Assembly (NCBI GenBank): GCA_963819655.1
Contig: CAWFXA010000002.1
Coordinates: 352,001 to 416,000 of the forward strand
From: an uncultured Chloroflexia bacterium
GTDB taxonomy: Bacteria; Chloroflexota; Limnocylindria; Limnocylindrales; CSP1-4
Length of the DNA: 64,000 nt
Direction of reading: 5' to 3'
Positions 9,988-17,919 of this stretch are shown piece by piece (position 1 is the first letter of the stretch; every line of letters begins with the position of its first letter). The position numbers and the translations under genes were made by a program. The notes under the pieces were generated by a model, which made no database searches, was not told the DNA's origin, and saw only the letters and a program-made list of their open reading frames with translations.

Positions 9988-10818
9988 CTATCCGGGCGTC
10001 CCGTCGAGCACTCCTCGTCCTGCTAGCTGCTGTCGTTGCCATTCATACACGCCGGGCAGCCAATCCTTGCCGAACGTGGCCGATGGGCCGATGCGCGGGT
10101 CATCTGGAGCATGGCCGTCCCGCAAGGCATGCACGTACGCGCGATCCTGTTCGATCCGAGCGCGTACCTGATCAGCTCCGCCGACGGACCCGTGACCGGG
10201 GATGAGGACGTCCACGTCGTCCGCCACGCCCTCGAGCAACCGCAGCCCGGTGAGGTAGTCCTCGATCGGATTTGCGGCGTCCAGGTCGGGGAACGGAATC
10301 AGGATGTCAGACAGCATGTCGCCGGCGACGAGAACGCCGCGGTCCTCGATCAACAGCGCCGCGTGGCCCTGGGCGTGCGCCGGGTGCTCGATGATCCCGA
10401 CTTCAGGGCCCTCCCAGGGGATCCGCGCAGTTTCGGCAGGCAGACCGGTGATGAGGCCGAACAGGTCCAGCGGGATCTCCTCGGCGATCTCGGGCGGTAA
10501 CCCCTCGGCGACGCGGGCCTTCCAGTCCGCGTTCGACAGCAGCTCTCGCATGAACGCCGCGCAGCGGGCTGTGCCGTAGCGGGGCGCTTCGCCGAGCTTG
10601 GGGTGCCAGAGCACGTGATCCCAATCAGGATGCGTCGAGAAGCCTGCCACAACGGGCTGGCCCAACTCGCGAAGGTCGTTCGCGAGGCAGGCCATTTCGT
10701 CGCCTGTTATCCCGGGATCGATGAGCAACACGCCGGCCCGACCTTGCACGACAACGGCGTTGTTCTCGAGTAGCTCGCTCTGGTGGACCAGCACACCGTC
10801 CGCGACCCGTCTCAGCAT
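9988..10818 (-). CDS. MBL-fold metallo-hydrolase
   Basis: LLIDPG, THPDWDH, AGDMLSD, IPGHG. Confidence 0.9.
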   Translation of the reverse strand: MLRRVADGVLVHQSELLENNAVVVQGRAGVLLIDPGITGDEMACLANDLRELGQPVVAGFSTHPDWDHVLWHPKLGEAPRYGTARCAAFMRELLSNADWKARVAEGLPPEIAEEIPLDLFGLITGLPAETARIPWEGPEVGIIEHPAHAQGHAALLIEDRGVLVAGDMLSDILIPFPDLDAANPIEDYLTGLRLLEGVADDVDVLIPGHGSVGGADQVRARIEQDRAYVHALRDGHAPDDPRIGPSATFGKDWLPGVYEWQRQQLAGRGVLDGTPG

Positions 10819-11476
10819 GGCGCTCCTTTCCGCTTGTGGTTTGCAACCGCTTGTCGAGACGGTACTGCCGGGCCCGTCACGACGCGGCTATGCCGGACGG
10901 AGGCGCTGTCTGAGACCGTCGCGAGAAGGGCGTCGGCAACGTCGGCCCGACTGATCGTGCCGACATCCGTCAGCGTTCCGCTCAACGGTGCGGTAGGCAC
11001 CGGCACGAGGGCCATCGGTGAGGCGGGTCGCATAGACGATCGTCCAGTCGATGTCGGAGCCCTCGAGGAGCTTCTCACCGGCGGTCTTGTCTTCGACGAC
11101 GCCCTTCATGGCCAAGCCCGCGAGCTTCATGACGCCCGTGGCCTTGTAGGACGGGCTCGCGGCGAAGGTCGAGAGCATCACCAACCGGCTGACGCCTGCA
11201 CTCGGCATGGCTTCGAGCAACGCGGTGGTCGCGCTCCAGATCAGCTTCTGTTGAGCCTTCATGCCGCTGCCGAGCGTGCTGATCACGGCGTCCTGGCCTT
11301 TGAGGGCCCGGCGCAGGTCATCAGCATTGCGCGCGTCCCCGACCACGATCGTGACATCACTGCGTTCGAGCTTCTGCGGGTCGCGAACGAAGGCGGTAAC
11401 GGTGTGTCCGGCTCGTCGCGCCTGTGCAACGACCCTCGGCCCGTCTTGCCGGACGCCCCCAGGATAGGATGTTCAT
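10812..11476 (-). CDS. NAD(P)H-binding atypical SDR (flavin reductase-like), several frameshifts
   Basis: GASGKTG Rossmann start, TAFVRDP, GQDAVIS, IDWTIV, ISRADVA spread across frames. Confidence 0.75.
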
Positions 11477-11679: not shown

Positions 11680-11949
11680 CTAACGTCGACGCGGGATCCG
11701 AAGGGTCGCCATGAGCCGGTCGCGGATCAACGGGTCGATGCTCGCGACGTCGGCCGGGGAGATGCGGCCGGCCATCCGCTTGATCGTCTGGAACTGGTCG
11801 ACAGCCGCCCGGCAGCCGGGGCAGCCCTCGAGGTGGCGTTCGATCCGAGTGCGCTCGACGTCGGCCACATCACCGTCGATGTACGCGCTGATCTCGTCGA
11901 CGAACTCGATGCAGCGGAGCTCGTCGTCGGTCCTCGCCTGATCGTTCAC
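11680..11949 (-). CDS. zf-HC2 zinc-binding anti-sigma factor (soluble)
   Basis: CIEFVDEISAYIDG...HLEGCPGC (HxxxCxxC); AGGAG RBS; GTG overlaps upstream stop. Confidence 0.88.
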   Translation of the reverse strand: MNDQARTDDELRCIEFVDEISAYIDGDVADVERTRIERHLEGCPGCRAAVDQFQTIKRMAGRISPADVASIDPLIRDRLMATLRIPRRR

Positions 11950-13537
11950 GACGTCGCTCCTGTTTCGTCGAGATGCCGCTCGAGGCGCGCCCGAACGAAG
12001 CTGCGCGCCTGTTGGAGCAATGCTCGCTCTTGTTCCTGGCTGATCGCCAGGGCCGTCCTCGCCTCCTCCGACGTCCTTCCTTCGAGGTCGCGGAGGACCA
12101 TGACCCGGCGCAGGGCCGGTGGCATGTCGGCGATCGCCGCCCGCGCCTGGCCCAGCACCTCGGGGTCGTCGATCGCGACGCGGTCGCTCCAGGCGGTGGG
12201 CAGCTTGGCCCAGTGGCCCGGCCAGACGGGGTCGTCGGGCGGTAGGAAGCGGTCCGCCGGGAAAGCCTCGGTTCGATCGCCAGCGCAGGCTGCTCGACGT
12301 CGGCGGCTTGCTCTGGTGCGGGTCTCGCGCGCGGCAGCACCAGGAGCATGAGCACGGCGGCCGCGATGCCGACAGCCACGAAGAGCCAGCCCGCACGGCC
12401 GATCCCCGCCTGCTGGCTCACCCCGCCGATGACGAGGGCGAACGGCACGAACGCGAGCCAGGTCAGCATGCCGACGCCCGACGCAACGCCCGCTCGGATC
12501 GCCGACGGCACCGCGTCGTGCAAGCTCCGAGTCACCGGGATGCTGATCGCGACCACGATCAGCGTCAGCAGGACCTGGACGCCGACCACGATCAGGGGCT
12601 GCTCGCTGATGACCAGGACCACGCCGCAGGCCGCCAACGCCGCGCCAAGCAGCGGCACCGCCCAGGCCCGTGTGATCCAGGCCCGAGCGCCGAGCAGGCC
12701 GCCCACCCCGAGCGCCCCGGTGAGCCCGGCCCAATGCGGGCCGAAGAGGAAGGGCGGCACCGCCAAGGCGACCAACCAGAGCGGACCGAACTCGAGCATG
12801 CCCTGCATGAGCAGCGACCCGGCGATCGTCAACAGGACGACGAGACGGAGTTGGCCGCCGGACAGGATCGTCCGGTAGGTAGCTGCGATCTGGCCGCGGA
12901 GCGTCTCCTGATCCTCGGACTTGTGCAGCCGCGGCTCTCGGAACCTGAGCAACAGCAGGAAGCCGATCACCAGCGGTGGCACGGTGAGGAAGTACGTCGA
13001 CTGGAGCGGGGCGACCTGGGCGATGAGGCCACCGGCAAGGGCGCTCGCCACGAGCGCCACGCTCTCGATCACGCGGACCCGACCGATCGTCGCCTCGAAC
13101 GCCTCGCTGTCGCCGGTCTCCTCGAGGACCGTGTCGTAGACGATCGACTCGAAGGTGCCGGACTGCAGGGCGAAGAACACGCCGAGGAACGCCGCCGAGA
13201 CCATGTAGACGGGAACGCTCTGGCTGAGGCCGCCGATCACGACGGCGACGATCGCTGCGAGAGATCCGAGCAGGAGGACGCCCCTCCGGCTCCAGCGGTC
13301 GGCCAGGATCCCCGACGGTACCTCCAACACGGGAACGACGACCGCGTACACAGCGGCCATGATCCCGACCGTCGCCGAGGTGAAGCCGATGCTCGTCATG
13401 AACAGCTTCTCGATCGCAACCCAGAAGGCGAGTGCACCGAAGAAGGATGCGGCGTAGAGCGGGAAGAGGCGTCGGCTGAGGGCTTTCCGCCCGGACCCGT
13501 CGAGACCGTTCTGTTCCGATGCCTGCGTCGCGGTCAC
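11946..13537 (-). CDS. MFS transporter apparently fused to an ECF sigma region-4 domain (one frameshift near 12270)
   Basis: MFS motif A EVPSGILADRWSRR and about 12 TM segments; the adjacent frame gives DRFLPPDDPVWPGHW...LRDLEGRTSEE...ARSFVRARLE. Confidence 0.75.
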
Positions 13538-13652: not shown

Positions 13653-14366
13653 CTAGGGTGAACCTGCGCGTTGGGTGCGCGCCTCGAGGCGATATGTCTC
13701 CAGCCGGTCGGCCAGCTCGACCGGATTGCTCATCGCGACCATGTGACCGCCATCGATCTCGTCGACGTCGAGGCCCAGCCGTTCTCGGGCGATCCGGCGC
13801 TGGAACTCGAGCGGGAACATTCGATCGTGGCGGCCGGCCAGCACCCGAGTCGGAACATCGGGCCAAGCCGGCAGCGGCCATGGTTCATCCAGCGGCGTCA
13901 TCGACTGGTCCTGCCACGTCCGCGCCTGCGCCTCCGCCCTGAGCTCGGCCGGCAGGTCGTGGTAGTAGATGACGGCGTCGTCATCTGCCTCGGTGGGCTC
14001 CAGCCCGATGCTGGCGTGGTACTCGCGCCGGGCGCTCCCGGAGTCGGTGTTCGACCACCAGGCGTTGAAGGTCTCCCCGTGGGCCGGGATCATCGCGTTC
14101 AGGAGGACGAGCAACTCTACGGGTCGCCGCGCACACACGATCGGGGCGGTGAAGCCGCCCATCGATTCGGCGACGACGACGATGTCGCGGCGGTCGCCCA
14201 GGGCGTCTACGACCGCATCGGCATACTCGGTCCAGCCGGCGCTGTCGTCCTCGGACGGCAGCCGGATGGCGAGAGCCTCGTGACCCTGAGCCTCAAGCTC
14301 GGGTGCGAGCCGGTGCCACTCCCAGGGATCGCCGCCGCCGCCCGGGATCAGCGCGTAGGTCGAGAT
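13653..14366 (-). CDS. alpha/beta hydrolase
   Basis: LIPGGGGDPWEW, nucleophile AESMGG, DRMFP, GGHM; the frame extends to an ATC codon behind a GGAGAGGAG RBS. Confidence 0.85.
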   Translation of the reverse strand: MSTYALIPGGGGDPWEWHRLAPELEAQGHEALAIRLPSEDDSAGWTEYADAVVDALGDRRDIVVVAESMGGFTAPIVCARRPVELLVLLNAMIPAHGETFNAWWSNTDSGSARREYHASIGLEPTEADDDAVIYYHDLPAELRAEAQARTWQDQSMTPLDEPWPLPAWPDVPTRVLAGRHDRMFPLEFQRRIARERLGLDVDEIDGGHMVAMSNPVELADRLETYRLEARTQRAGSP

Positions 14367-14404: not shown

Positions 14405-15058
14405 CTACGACACCGCGTTCGGGTCCGGTGTGTAGAAGGAGATCGTATTCGCGACGTTGCGTGCGACCGTCTCCGGGTCCGCGCCTGCGGCGCGGTTCGC
14501 CTCGCCCCAGGCCTCGCTGCTACGCGTGGAGAACTCCCGTCCTTCGGGTGACAGCTGCCACGCCTCCGGATCGCCGACGGACCCGCCACGAAGATGAAGA
14601 CCCAGCCCGTGCAGCCCCTGGTCCCAGCCCACGCCGACGGCGCCCGGCCCGTACTGACTCCACATCTCGCCCGGCACGACCGCCGTGTGCACGAAATCGA
14701 ACCGGGTCGATCCACCGTCGACCGTCATCAGCCGTACCTCGACTTCCGACGCGACGTCGTCGGTCGTCGGCTCGCCGTACGACCACGTCACCTTCAGCCG
14801 ATTCGGTCGCTCGCAGGCGAGGATCTCGCCCCCGGCGTTGCCCTCGAACTGGTAGCGACCGCCGAGGCGGTAGTCGCCGCTGATCGGCAGGAACCAGCGG
14901 CCGATCCGCTCGGGGTTCGTCAGCGCGTCCCAGACATCCTCGATGGGCGCGTCATAGTCACGCTGGAGGCGGATCGTCCGAGCTTCGCCGGCCGCGATCC
15001 GGCCCTCGCCGACCTCGCGCTTGACGGCCTCGATCTCACGGGCGATGTCGATCATCAC
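14405..15058 (-). CDS. SRPBCC (AHSA1-like) protein
   Basis: DAPIEDVWDALTNPERIGRWF...GPGAVGVGWD. Confidence 0.9.
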   Translation of the reverse strand: MMIDIAREIEAVKREVGEGRIAAGEARTIRLQRDYDAPIEDVWDALTNPERIGRWFLPISGDYRLGGRYQFEGNAGGEILACERPNRLKVTWSYGEPTTDDVASEVEVRLMTVDGGSTRFDFVHTAVVPGEMWSQYGPGAVGVGWDQGLHGLGLHLRGGSVGDPEAWQLSPEGREFSTRSSEAWGEANRAAGADPETVARNVANTISFYTPDPNAVS

Positions 15059-15423
15059 GTCTGCACTCCTTTCGAGCTGTCGGGCTCGGTCGCCCGAAGG
15101 CGGCGCTCGCGCCTGCCGCGAGCGAGCTCCGTCTCGAGCGAGTCGAGTCGCTGGACCAAGAACTGGCGGAAGTGGTCGAGCCAGTCGTCGACCTCGCGGA
15201 ACGACGCGGCGTCGACCGCGTACAGCCGGCGGGTGCCCTCGGGTCGGACGCTCGCGAACCCACTGTCGCGAAGGACCTTCAGGTGTTGCGACACGGCCGG
15301 TTGGGTGATCCCGAACTCTGCCTGAACGACCGCCGTGATCGCCCCTGAGGTCAGCTCGCCGTCCGCGAGCAGCTCGAGGATCCGGCGGCGGACGGGGTCT
15401 CCGAGAACATCGAATGCGTGCAC
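15055..15423 (-). CDS. ArsR/SmtB family regulator
   Basis: LGDPVRRRILELL...ITQPAVSQHLKVLR. Confidence 0.92.
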   Translation of the reverse strand: MHAFDVLGDPVRRRILELLADGELTSGAITAVVQAEFGITQPAVSQHLKVLRDSGFASVRPEGTRRLYAVDAASFREVDDWLDHFRQFLVQRLDSLETELARGRRERRLRATEPDSSKGVQT

Positions 15424-15510: not shown

Positions 15511-17287
15511 GTGGGCCTGACGCTGAGCATCGTCGGATTCGTGACCTGGCAGCGACGCCCTCGTAGCGGGATCGGGTCGATGGTCGCGGTGACCGGTCTC
15601 CTCTGGCTGCTCGGCAGCGTCTTCCCCGCCGCGCTCTACCTCCATCGTGTCGGTCTGACGGTCTTGTTCCTGACGTACCCGAGCGGCAAGCTGGCCCGCC
15701 GCAGCGATCGGATCCTTGTCGTCGCGTCCATCGTCCTGGCCGCAGCGCTGCCATTCGTCGGGCCGTCGGACATCGCGACGCTCGGGCTCGCGACACTCGT
15801 GGCGGCGATCGTCGTTCGGCGAACGCTGCCAGCCACGGGGCCGGCCAGACGGGCCTCGACCAGTGCCGCCGCGGCGGCGGTCGCCTTCGCTTCGCTGCTT
15901 CTGGCCGGCAGCCTGGCTCGGGTGTTCGGTTGGCCCGTCGACGGGCTCATGCTGCTCGCGTACGAGGTCGCGGTCACCGTGATCGTGCCGTCTACGACCC
16001 GGCCGGCGAGCTGTGCGCGTTCTGCCCGACCAACCTCCTGTCGATCGGTGTCGATCCGACCATCCACGACCTGGTCACGCGGATCGGCCTCGTTCTGGCC
16101 GTCGCATGGACGTCGGCCGTGATCGCCCTGGCCGGGCGCCGAGTCATCACGGCGACCCGGATCCGGCGCCGGCTCATCGGGCCCGTCCTCTCGCCCGCGG
16201 CGGCCTTCCTCGGGCTCGTCGCCCTCGGCGCAGGGGGAGACCTGCTCGGCAACCCGCTCAGCGCGGAGGCCAGGAGCTGGCTTCGCGGCCTCGAGGCCGT
16301 CGCGCTCGGGTCGATGGCCGCCGGGGTCGCCTGGCCGTGGCTCCGGGCGAGGCGGACTCGAACGGCGGTGACCAAGCTCGTGGTGGAGCTCGACACGTCG
16401 CAGGCGAGTGGTGACCTGCGCGACGTGCTCGCGCACGAGTTGTCCGACCCCGACCTCGAGGTCGCCTATCTGCTGGCGGACGGCCGCTTCGTCGCTCGCG
16501 ACGGTCGCGAGGTCGATGTCGGACCGGAACCGGGGCGCGCCGTGACGCCGCTTGTCCGGGGACAGGAAGTCGTCGGTCTCCTCCGCCATCGTCGCGATCT
16601 GCTGGACGATCCCGAGCGGATCGATGACGTCGTCGCAGCCCTCCGGCTGACGCTCGAGGGCGAGCGGCTGCGCGCCGAACTCCACGCACAGCTCGAGGAC
16701 CTTCGCGCATCGCGCATTCGCATCGTCGAGGCGTCCGACGCCGAACGGAGGCGACTTGAACGGGACCTGCACGATGGAGCGCAACAGCGGCTCGTCGGGC
16801 TCGCGATGGCCCTGCGACTGCTCGATCGGGAGCTGGAGACGCACGGGATGGAGTCGTCACGGTGGCTGGTGGCGGAGGCCAGCGACGAGCTCCGGGCGGG
16901 GATCGCGGAGCTCCGAGATCTCGCTCACGGCATCTACCCAGCCGAACTGGGCGGCGAGGGCCTGGCCGCCGCCTCGAAGCGCTCAGGGAAGCATCGAAAG
17001 TGGCCATCGAGTTGGGATCGCTGCCGACGGAGCGCCTCGATCCTCGGGTCGAGGCGACGGCCTATTTCGTCGTTGCCGAGGCGCTGCGACGAACCGCGGC
17101 CGACAAGCTCCGCGTGACAGCCGGGCACGACGGCGATCGACTTGTCGTCGAGATCGAGCAGGATGCGATCGCGCACGACGACGTCGTGGCGCTCCACGAC
17201 CGGGTCGGCGCACTCGACGGGACGATCGTCGTCCACACCACGGAGACGTCGCTCTCCATCAGGGCGGAGATTCCATGCGCATCGTGA
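15511..17287 (+). pseudogene. membrane sensor histidine kinase (HisKA_3/NarX type), 5'-truncated, internally broken and frameshifted
   Basis: ERRRLERDLHDGAQQRL H-box; frame breaks near 15985 and 16975; degenerate HATPase. Confidence 0.72.
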
Positions 17288-17919
17288 TCGCCGACGACGA
17301 AGTCCTCTTGCGCCAGGGCGTCGCTCGGCTGCTGACGGACGCGGGATTCGAGGTCGTGGCGACGGCGGGGACGAGGGACGAGCTCATCCGGGCCGTCGAA
17401 CGCCATCGACCCGACCTCGCGATCGTCGACATCCGCATGCCACCGACGCACACCGACGAGGGCCTGACGGCCAGCCAGGAGCTACGCCGCAGTCAGCCCG
17501 AGCTGGGCATCCTCATCCTGTCTCACTACCTTGAGTCGCGATACGCGATGCGGCTGCTGCAGGACCAGCCGGAGCGCGCTGGCTACCTCCTCAAGGAGCG
17601 TGTCTCCGACATAGCCGTACTCACTGACGCCCTGCGCCGCATCGACGACGGTGAGTGCGTCCTCGACCCGACCATCGTGGCCAGGCTCATCGGCCGCCGG
17701 CGAAGCCCGAATCCGCTCGTCGACCTATCGGAGCGCGAGGTGGAGGTTCTCGGCCTGATGGCCGAGGGCCGCTCGAACCATGCCATCGGTGAGCTGCTTT
17801 TCGTCAGCCACAAGACGGTCGAATCGCACGTCCGGCAGATCTTCATGAAGCTCGGCCTGGAGGAAACGCCCGACGACCACCGGCGCGTGCTGGCTGTCCT
17901 GGCCTATCTCAGGGCGTGA
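17275..17919 (+). CDS. NarL/LuxR family response regulator
   Basis: MRIVIADD, VDIRMPP, GYLLK, LSEREVEVL...GRSN HTH. Confidence 0.95.
   Translation: MRIVIADDEVLLRQGVARLLTDAGFEVVATAGTRDELIRAVERHRPDLAIVDIRMPPTHTDEGLTASQELRRSQPELGILILSHYLESRYAMRLLQDQPERAGYLLKERVSDIAVLTDALRRIDDGECVLDPTIVARLIGRRRSPNPLVDLSEREVEVLGLMAEGRSNHAIGELLFVSHKTVESHVRQIFMKLGLEETPDDHRRVLAVLAYLRA

Follow-up and report, generated by a model that had tools for sequence, protein, structure and literature searches.

The 64,000-nt stretch of DNA analyzed here (hereafter the window), from an uncultured Chloroflexia bacterium, carries at 11680-13537 a copy of a conserved, self-contained two-gene module. The first gene encodes a major facilitator superfamily (MFS) transporter extended by a linker and region 4 of the extracytoplasmic function (ECF) sigma factor type, and the second, which is translationally coupled to it, encodes a small zinc-finger anti-sigma-like protein (ZAS). 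That the module is conserved and that the sigma-derived tail serves to dock ZAS appears highly probable. All three elements (transporter, tail and ZAS) lie on the minus strand, and in the window copy a frame break separates the transporter from its tail. The features of the locus are as follows:

12269..13537, minus strand: MFS transporter domain, with GTG start at 13537, 12 transmembrane (TM) helices and a DHA1-like fold
12266..12270, minus strand: frame break, with 2 extra nt (12268-12267) relative to the closest in-frame relatives or, equivalently, 1 nt missing from a longer form
11949..12266, minus strand: cytoplasmic tail, consisting of ECF-sigma linker plus region 4 (106 aa, no region 2; stop codon TGA at 11948-11946)
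11946..11949, minus strand: GTGA overlap of the tail stop codon with the ZAS start codon (translational coupling), read from the sequence
11680..11949, minus strand: ZAS, a soluble zf-HC2 anti-sigma-like protein (89 aa, GTG at 11949-11947, PF13490)

The MFS open reading frame (ORF) extends from 13537 to 11870 (555 aa), and its first ~420 residues form the transporter. It is open past the last helix, as a preliminary description of this DNA had stated, and the final in-frame codon that it has in common with its relatives is P423 (12271-12269). Pfam MFS_1 (PF07690) matches residues 24-360 at 82.8 bits (cut-off 33.4), which together with the 12-helix fold places the protein in the MFS superfamily; motif A (GxLADRxxRR) was also found in the transporter part. 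The tail is read from 12266 in the -1 frame as AFPADRFLPPDDPVWPGHW...VMVLRDLEGRTSEE...LLQQARSFVRARLERHLDETGATS, with LRDLEGRTSEE within it and GATS before the TGA, and contains the linker pattern FPxDRF...WPGHW...P..W. The overlap of this TGA with the GTG of an HxxxCxxC anti-sigma, also reported in the preliminary description, is present as described, and an AGGAG sequence lies 7 nt 5' of the GTG. ZAS matches PF13490 at 49.3 bits (cut-off 22.2) and has the zinc motif C13-x25-H39-x3-C43-x2-C46, so that both the domain score and the H-x3-C-x2-C motif assign it to the class I zf-HC2 proteins. Its C-terminus (...RDRLMATLRIPRRR) is basic and conserved.

A conserved family of fusions followed by ZAS

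In a search of approximately 5.8 billion proteins with the MFS part, 8,000 candidates were scored, of which 2,238 matched at E <= 0.001. The best 120 homologues are mostly 505-565 aa long; the linker motif was found in frame in 106 of them using a regular expression, a further 7 end in a region-4-like tail as judged by eye, and the remaining 7 are the window's own ORF and truncated, unfused or frame-broken entries. The domain pair PF07690+PF08281 had already been annotated in 38 of the 120. A scan of one genome per species then gave 38 loci, distributed as follows:

In-frame fusions (22 loci): 5 Streptomyces, 2 Modestobacter, Geodermatophilus, Pseudonocardia yuanmonensis and Promicromonospora panici, with further members in Micromonosporaceae, Streptosporangiales, Acidimicrobiia/Ilumatobacteraceae and Chloroflexia/Limnocylindria metagenome-assembled genomes (MAGs)
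Frame-broken fusions (4 loci): L043, L059, L065 and L073
Fusion cut by a contig end (1 locus): L042
Untailed MFS (11 loci), including L074, which is itself frame-broken

A maximum-likelihood tree built from the MFS part groups the tailed proteins (25 rows) and the cut L042 in one clade (99/99), and the untailed MFS proteins fall outside it. The tree was rooted at the midpoint only, and no direction of change can therefore be claimed; under this rooting, the Chloroflexota copies nest among those of Actinomycetota. An MFS match at E <= 1e-20 is absent from 100 other genomes of the genus, and a DNA search with the locus in 40 relatives returned only short matches (26-81 nt). The patchy distribution of the module and the nesting of its copies hint at horizontal transfer and also speak for a self-contained module.

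The ZAS gene travels with the fusion. Of the fusion loci, 25 continue beyond the stop codon (the 22 in-frame loci plus L043, L059 and L065), and each of them has a ZAS homologue directly downstream (E 1e-9 to 3e-38), and no ZAS match was found downstream of the degraded L073. The ZAS start overlaps the fusion stop as ATGA/GTGA in 16 of the 22 in-frame loci and as TGATG in two more. No other neighboring ORF family is common to more than 4 of the 25 fusion loci. The preliminary description had called for a search of related genomes for such MFS-region 4 architectures followed by zf-HC2, and had feared that relatives would instead carry separate MFS and full ECF genes, which would point to a recent deletion or misassembly. 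The result favors its proposal of a real fusion next to ZAS: in-frame fusions dominate the close homologues, relatives within the clade carry the fusion, and separate genes occur only in a more distant MFS clade. The fusion is a conserved family and not a local deletion.

Selection on the module was estimated from the ratio of nonsynonymous to synonymous substitution rates (dN/dS) in seven pairs of loci, which was 0.17-0.30 for the MFS part, 0.22-0.35 for the tail and 0.25-0.62 for ZAS. The values for the tail and ZAS indicate that both are under purifying selection. These data bear on the idea that the architecture is a decaying remnant, in which region 2 was lost through a deletion within an MFS-sigma-ZAS operon and neither the tail nor ZAS has a function. 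Distant relatives do have separate sigma, ZAS and MFS genes, and the tail scores below the Pfam threshold (see below). However, the in-frame fusions form a single well-supported clade that spans two phyla, the dN/dS of the tail is low, linker, region-4 and zinc-ligand residues are invariant, and the start/stop overlap is conserved. This idea is close to refuted, and we give it hardly any weight.

Sigma ancestry of the tail and its altered recognition helix

The tail scores 19.9 bits against Pfam Sigma70_r4_2, below the cut-off of 25.7; the corresponding scores are 18.5 for P0002 (529 aa), the closest relative of the window's protein, and 24.1 for P0035. NCBIfam ECF models align with the tail by their C-terminal halves only, and weak matches to PhyR models were also obtained (PhyR_sigma-like, 14.4 bits against 27; NF006623). 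In direct comparisons, the tail shares 49% identity with a full sigma of genome G009 (E 6.6e-23), and 121 library proteins match it at E <= 1e-10. Judged by these alignments, its homology to ECF sigmas is clear despite the sub-threshold Pfam score. The matching protein of G009 (locus L013, 1141-2240) is an ordinary full ECF sigma of 238 aa, and downstream of it lies a 129-aa anti-sigma containing two C...HxxxCxxC repeats in tandem. No other close relative of the tail was found in the genus.

No Sigma70_r2 match was found in any frame of 11949-12734, and the region-4 frame 5' of 12266 overlies the MFS helices, which bears out the earlier statement that sigma region 2 is absent. In-frame relatives run straight from TM12 through a spacer into the linker. 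In the tail alignment, F7, D11, H18, W19, P23 and W26 of the linker and R42, P49, V55, D60, L84, R88 and R92 of region 4 are invariant. We compared the recognition helix between 136 fusion tails and 80 full-length sigma relatives. The linker motif is common to both groups. At the recognition helix, the window has QEQERALLQQAR where TNQRVLLHRAR is usual: tail positions 78-80, which are T/G/A-N (67%)-Q (81%) in full sigmas, have become E/D-E/D-E in the fusions, and further changes are R86 (87%) to Q, K/R90 to L and W64 to R. The altered helix noticed in the preliminary description is therefore a family-wide feature, and the helix is now acidic. From the general role of this helix, such changes would be expected to abolish DNA reading. 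With no region 2, a region 4 below the Pfam score and an atypical recognition helix, the tail falls outside the ECF sigmas, and it should be unable to act as a sigma because region 2 is absent and the recognition helix has turned acidic. The accompanying suggestion that DNA reading was lost and anti-sigma docking kept is supported by the acidic helix, the purifying selection and the co-folding described in the next section.

It is also possible to ask whether the tail tethers RNA polymerase, through a region-4/beta-flap contact, or DNA to the membrane, with ZAS blocking the contact. Sigma factors use region 4 to contact the beta flap and the -35 element, and the linker motif is common to full sigmas. 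On the other side, region 2, the main core-binding part, is missing, and the recognition helix has gained three acidic residues and lost two basic ones. We regard this explanation as very unlikely.

The same W-rich linker plus region 4 was also observed in two other settings: joined to an N-terminal non-MFS domain in P0139 (432 aa), and with a long C-terminal extension in P0258 (460 aa).

Predicted docking of ZAS on the tail

In the alignment of 22 ZAS sequences, C13, H39, C43 and C46 are invariant, and the C-terminal pattern ...DP..RDRL.AT.R.PRRR is nearly so. The RsrA equivalog model TIGR03988 matches ZAS at 40.8 bits, under its cut-off of 62.5, and the closest solved chains are RslA (3hug_B) and RsrA (5frf). 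We take the zinc ligands of RsrA to be the same four-residue Cys-His-Cys-Cys set as C13, H39, C43 and C46 of ZAS.

The tail and ZAS were co-folded with zinc, as the preliminary description had suggested. Three runs scored 0.89, 0.87 and 0.89, and the best of three controls scored 0.00; the mark applied is reached by 116 of 157 solved complexes and by 2 of 215 mismatched pairs, counts that apply only roughly here. At least 95% of contacts recur across the runs, and the partner pLDDT (predicted local distance difference test) is at least 78. In the predicted interface, the tail contributes the W-rich linker (residues 16-19 and 22-27) and the region-4 helices, and ZAS contributes residues 12-27 and 43-75. 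The model thus supports binding of the tail to ZAS. According to passages of PMC7406223, class I anti-sigma domains bind region 4 through helix 1 and region 2 through helix 4, which is usually poorly conserved and gives specificity. As region 2 is absent here and the ZAS C-terminus is nevertheless highly conserved, this C-terminus probably has another conserved target.

The AlphaFold2 model of P0002, built from a 114-row alignment (mean pLDDT 86.4, predicted TM-score 0.75), shows 12 long MFS helices with pLDDT above 90, a disordered spacer (residues 409-424) and a confident helical region 4 (residues 458-526). The best Foldseek match of the transporter part is MdfA (4zow; E 2.8e-8, TMt 0.78), and the structure search returned 420 MFS matches in the PDB at E <= 0.001. 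Both termini of 12-helix MFS proteins are cytoplasmic, and the tail can therefore meet the soluble ZAS in that compartment.

Proposed function and its alternatives

We tentatively propose, giving the whole chain of steps somewhat less than an even chance, that the pseudo-sigma tail docks ZAS and that ZAS in turn switches the transporter directly. Based on the model and on conservation, the tail would have kept its surfaces for anti-sigma binding and would thereby form a docking site that holds ZAS at the cytoplasmic face of the transporter. ZAS docked there would be a thiol/zinc switch on the transporter itself, similar to RsrA: it would be bound while reduced and zinc-loaded, and oxidation or electrophile stress would release or rearrange it, so that transport activity would be altered post-translationally. 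The conserved ZAS C-terminus, having no region 2 to bind, may contact another part of the module. A bolder version, which we think rather unlikely, holds that the sigma/anti-sigma pair has left transcription altogether and is reused as a thiol/zinc latch. In this version, the tail, attached to the C-terminal half of the MFS protein, would hold ZAS, the basic ZAS C-terminus would reach another cytoplasmic part of the pump, oxidation would lock or unlock the rocker-switch, and single chains with sigma on the N-terminal and ZAS on the C-terminal MFS half would be a covalent form of this clamp.

The alternative that survives best is a transporter-coupled partner switch, in which the MFS protein senses, the tail captures or releases ZAS depending on the transport state, ZAS holds an unlinked ECF sigma, and the output is transcription, as in PhyR-NepR-EcfG; the transporter would then be a membrane-tethered anti-anti-sigma. 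As a sigma mimic with predicted binding to ZAS, the tail speaks for this scheme, and the relatives of the transporter add to it. In a sister MFS clade, four operons (L060, L062, L070 and L071) have the unfused order sigma - ZAS1 - MFS - short ZAS2, and their sigma is full and has the canonical recognition helix NQRVLLHRAR. The permutations of fusion in this clade were drawn from proteins P0275-P0357, P0350, P0272, P0271 and P0240. MFS proteins with a C-terminal ZAS domain are represented by PF13490 in 25 of the 120 matches listed in a second search (about 505-516 aa), P0350 has two ZAS domains in one protein, and single sigma-MFS-ZAS chains are found in P0272 (710 aa), P0271 and P0240. That this MFS subfamily has been joined repeatedly to sigma and ZAS parts strongly suggests a physical interplay between them, which is compatible with both direct control and a partner switch.

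Candidate target sigmas were sought in the host genomes. The window's genome has about 50 region-4 matches and 5 zf-HC2 matches, and the best other match to the tail in it is 30% identical. The tail profile finds one fusion in each of five isolate genomes; among these five, a second sigma matching it through the linker occurs only in Geodermatophilus (E 3e-18 and 6e-17) and Pseudonocardia (E 4e-16). The best second match in the Streptomyces isolate covers region 4 only (E 3e-12), and those in the Modestobacter and Promicromonospora isolates are weak (about 1e-7). The full sigmas of Geodermatophilus and Pseudonocardia speak for a partner switch; against it, no sigma resembling the tail through the linker was found in the window's genome, Modestobacter or Promicromonospora, and no full sigma is conserved near the module in the fusion loci examined. 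Moreover, the helix-4 region of ZAS is highly conserved across phyla, unlike the variable helix 4 of ordinary class I anti-sigmas as described in part of PMC7406223. Promoter scans in the 330 nt upstream of 26 copies, carried out with two ECF-type motifs, gave no signal: each motif was seen in 1 of the 26 copies, against a shuffled mean of 1.2 for GGRAY-N16-19-GTT and of 0.9 for KGAAC-N15-18-CGT. Overall, the partner switch is possible but on the unlikely side, and we favor direct transporter control over it, to which we give slightly below an even chance. The preliminary description had put forward both a redox- or Zn-gated transporter and a membrane-tethered anti-anti-sigma decoy, and either would still be hypothetical.

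Several observations weigh against direct control by a docked ZAS. The co-folding used our own alignments (A3 for the tail, A4 for ZAS) and a zinc ion, which lies outside its calibration, and a resemblance to solved sigma/anti-sigma complexes may account for its pass. The conserved ZAS residues 76-89 are not among the predicted interface residues. The cytoplasmic loops TM6-7 and TM10-11 of the MFS part are equally conserved in tailed and untailed clades, and thus no tail-specific docking site is apparent on the transporter. In addition, the sister-clade sigma beside the MFS and the MFS-ZAS fusions look like ordinary anti-sigma signaling, which favors a transcriptional output.

Frame break in the window copy

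The MFS part of the window is identical to P0002 at 410 of 422 positions, and the tail is identical to P0002 residues 424-529 at 103 of 106. The junction of P0002 is in frame (...ALAIEP|AFPADRF...), and since it reads IEP|AFPADRF, the window is 2 nt longer at 12268-12267. In a contig of ~95% identity (run X2), a single base is missing at each of the positions 12266 and 12269. The preliminary description had restored a single base near 12270. The frame break itself is real, and this restoration is just one of two equivalent repairs, the alternative being removal of the 2 extra nt.

Codon usage changes sides at the same place. Using a log-odds model trained on long ORFs of the window's own genome, we obtained +175 upstream and -42 downstream of the junction for the MFS frame, and -78 upstream and +19 downstream for the region-4 frame; ZAS scored +25 with the same model. 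A codon-usage scan for candidate frame breaks gave 169 in the 3.49 Mb of the window's genome (48.5 per Mb), an assembly of 3 contigs. The other sets scanned gave 2 in 145 kb of isolate loci (13.8 per Mb), 10 in 156 kb of MAG loci with 'contig_N'-style names (64 per Mb) and 2 in 120 kb of other MAG loci (16.6 per Mb). The 169 candidates suggest residual indel errors across this assembly, and broken-gene findings in the window's genome therefore need reads. We conclude that the frame break is probably an assembly indel and the gene probably intact in the organism.

Some points weigh on the other side of this conclusion. No sequencing run screened contained at least half of the window's words (best share 0.33). 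The contigs recovered from the runs belong to relatives and therefore cannot verify the window's own bases. The isolate control of the scan is small (145 kb), and the detector missed the break at 12268 itself, because the tail score of 19.2 is below the threshold of 25; the counts are accordingly a rough lower bound.

The other explanation with some standing is that the window copy is a true pseudogene, in which the transporter has been cut off from its tail and ZAS by a genuine insertion of 2 nt (or deletion of 1 nt), the family being functional elsewhere. The assembly as given is out of frame, and frame-broken copies occur in other genomes too (L043, L059, L065, L073 and L074). However, nearly all of these come from assemblies that share one naming style, and the MFS part, the tail and ZAS show no excess divergence (97% identity in the MFS part and tail). 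The codon log-odds of the tail are still positive, the genome has its many other candidate breaks, and two neighboring genes are also broken within short stretches. Furthermore, the break pattern is typical of residual long-read indels, which we infer from the 3 contigs for 3.49 Mb. A true pseudogene is therefore an unlikely, though not negligible, explanation. Programmed -1 ribosomal frameshifting that joins both frames in the organism is extremely improbable: the two frames do overlap by hundreds of bases and the MFS frame has no stop until 11870, but relatives are simply in frame, no X XXY YYZ slippery heptamer occurs in the MFS frame at 12260-12275, and the genome contains many other frame breaks.

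Relation to known systems

The module belongs neither to PhyR-type mimicry, nor to RsrA-type switches, nor to the ECF/membrane anti-sigma fusions. It resembles PhyR-NepR-EcfG in that a degenerate sigma-like domain, no longer a sigma, is fused to a signaling domain and binds an anti-sigma, which the weak matches of the tail to PhyR models fit; the partner-switch principle is outlined in passages of PMC8999054. PhyR itself is soluble and has sigma-2-like and sigma-4-like parts with a receiver domain, and NepR is not a zinc finger. The module, in contrast, has the linker and region 4 only, carried by a 12-helix transporter, with a ZAS partner and no target sigma linked to it. Lacking a receiver domain and a sigma-2-like part, the tail is not of the PhyR type.

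With RsrA-SigR (RsrA, 5FRF) and RslA-SigL (3HUG), the module has in common a small soluble zf-HC2 protein with Cys-x25-His-x3-Cys-x2-Cys, coupled to a sigma-derived gene. It differs from RsrA-SigR and the other ZAS-ECF pairs in that the bound partner has no region 2 and that ZAS falls below the RsrA equivalog cut-off; its ZAS C-terminus is also far more conserved than the usual class I helix 4, as portrayed in part of PMC7406223. In ECF sigmas with membrane-spanning anti-sigma extensions (ECF52 SCO4117), which are covered in sections of PMC8999054, sigma-derived and zinc-finger anti-sigma domains are likewise joined to TM segments; those fusions keep regions 2 and 4 and have one to few helices and no transporter. 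The best structural matches of the transporter part, the DHA1-type drug/proton antiporters MdfA, SotB and NorA (TMt 0.70-0.78), are only 15-20% identical to it, and the solved ones have no sigma or anti-sigma domain. The sister-clade MFS-ZAS and sigma-MFS-ZAS proteins (P0272) come from the same MFS subfamily and use the same sigma and ZAS modules. There, however, the tethered part is a C-terminal ZAS, or an N-terminal full sigma together with a C-terminal ZAS, and a gene for a full sigma whose recognition helix is canonical lies beside them.

Full-text searches of the openly accessible literature yielded no account of an MFS transporter that carries a sigma or anti-sigma domain, and term look-up in passages of the ECF papers PMC7826278, PMC8999054 and PMC7406223 gave none either. 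The protein atlas returned only a generic 'MFS transporter' cluster, and plain 'MFS transporter' is also the database label of the MFS-region 4 proteins. According to part of PMC7826278, the re-classification of ECF sigmas demanded that a protein have the sigma-2 as well as the sigma-4 Pfam domain, which would have excluded the MFS-region 4 family; as ECF surveys retain nothing that lacks either sigma domain, this transporter-borne half-sigma has gone unnoticed. The pairing of an MFS-region 4 fusion with ZAS thus seems to be undescribed.

ECF sigma/anti-sigma pairs are commonly treated as transcription switches. If the tail docks a redox-sensitive zinc protein, the module would be the first sigma-derived module that directly controls a membrane transporter, or else a new membrane-tethered form of sigma mimicry. 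Either reading would connect the sensing of thiols or zinc with transport in Actinomycetota and Chloroflexota that are widespread in soil. The module is directly testable, since cultured Streptomyces, Modestobacter, Geodermatophilus, Pseudonocardia and Promicromonospora carry intact copies, and the permutations of fusion (MFS-sigma4 with ZAS, MFS-ZAS and sigma-MFS-ZAS) provide natural controls.

Neighboring genes in the window

The module is flanked by genes for a metallo-beta-lactamase-fold protein (9988-10818, minus strand), an alpha/beta hydrolase fragment whose Pfam match begins at profile position 75 (13653-14162, minus strand) and an ArsR-family regulator (15055-15423, minus strand). None of these three is conserved beside the module in other genomes. 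Five candidate frame breaks were detected inside the window, at about 4725, 5491, 15987, 16979 and 27651.

An NAD(P)H-binding gene (NAD_binding_10; 10888-11475, minus strand) adjoins ZAS downstream. Three frames are needed within 11400-11475 (~75 nt) to read its beginning, with the pieces MNIL..., ILGASGKTGR... and RVVAQARRAGHTV..., and its Pfam match begins at profile position 45. About 4 kb from the module, a sensor histidine kinase is also frame-broken (15511-17287 and then 17200-17919, plus strand). Its HisKA_3 domain lies in the 15930-17117 frame and the continuation in the 16760-17287 frame, with the switch near 16979; the continuation (...LEALREASKVAIELGSLPTERLDPRVEATAYFVVAEAL...) has no Pfam match and appears ATPase-like by eye. 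A further candidate break lies near 15987, and an intact LuxR-type response regulator follows the kinase.

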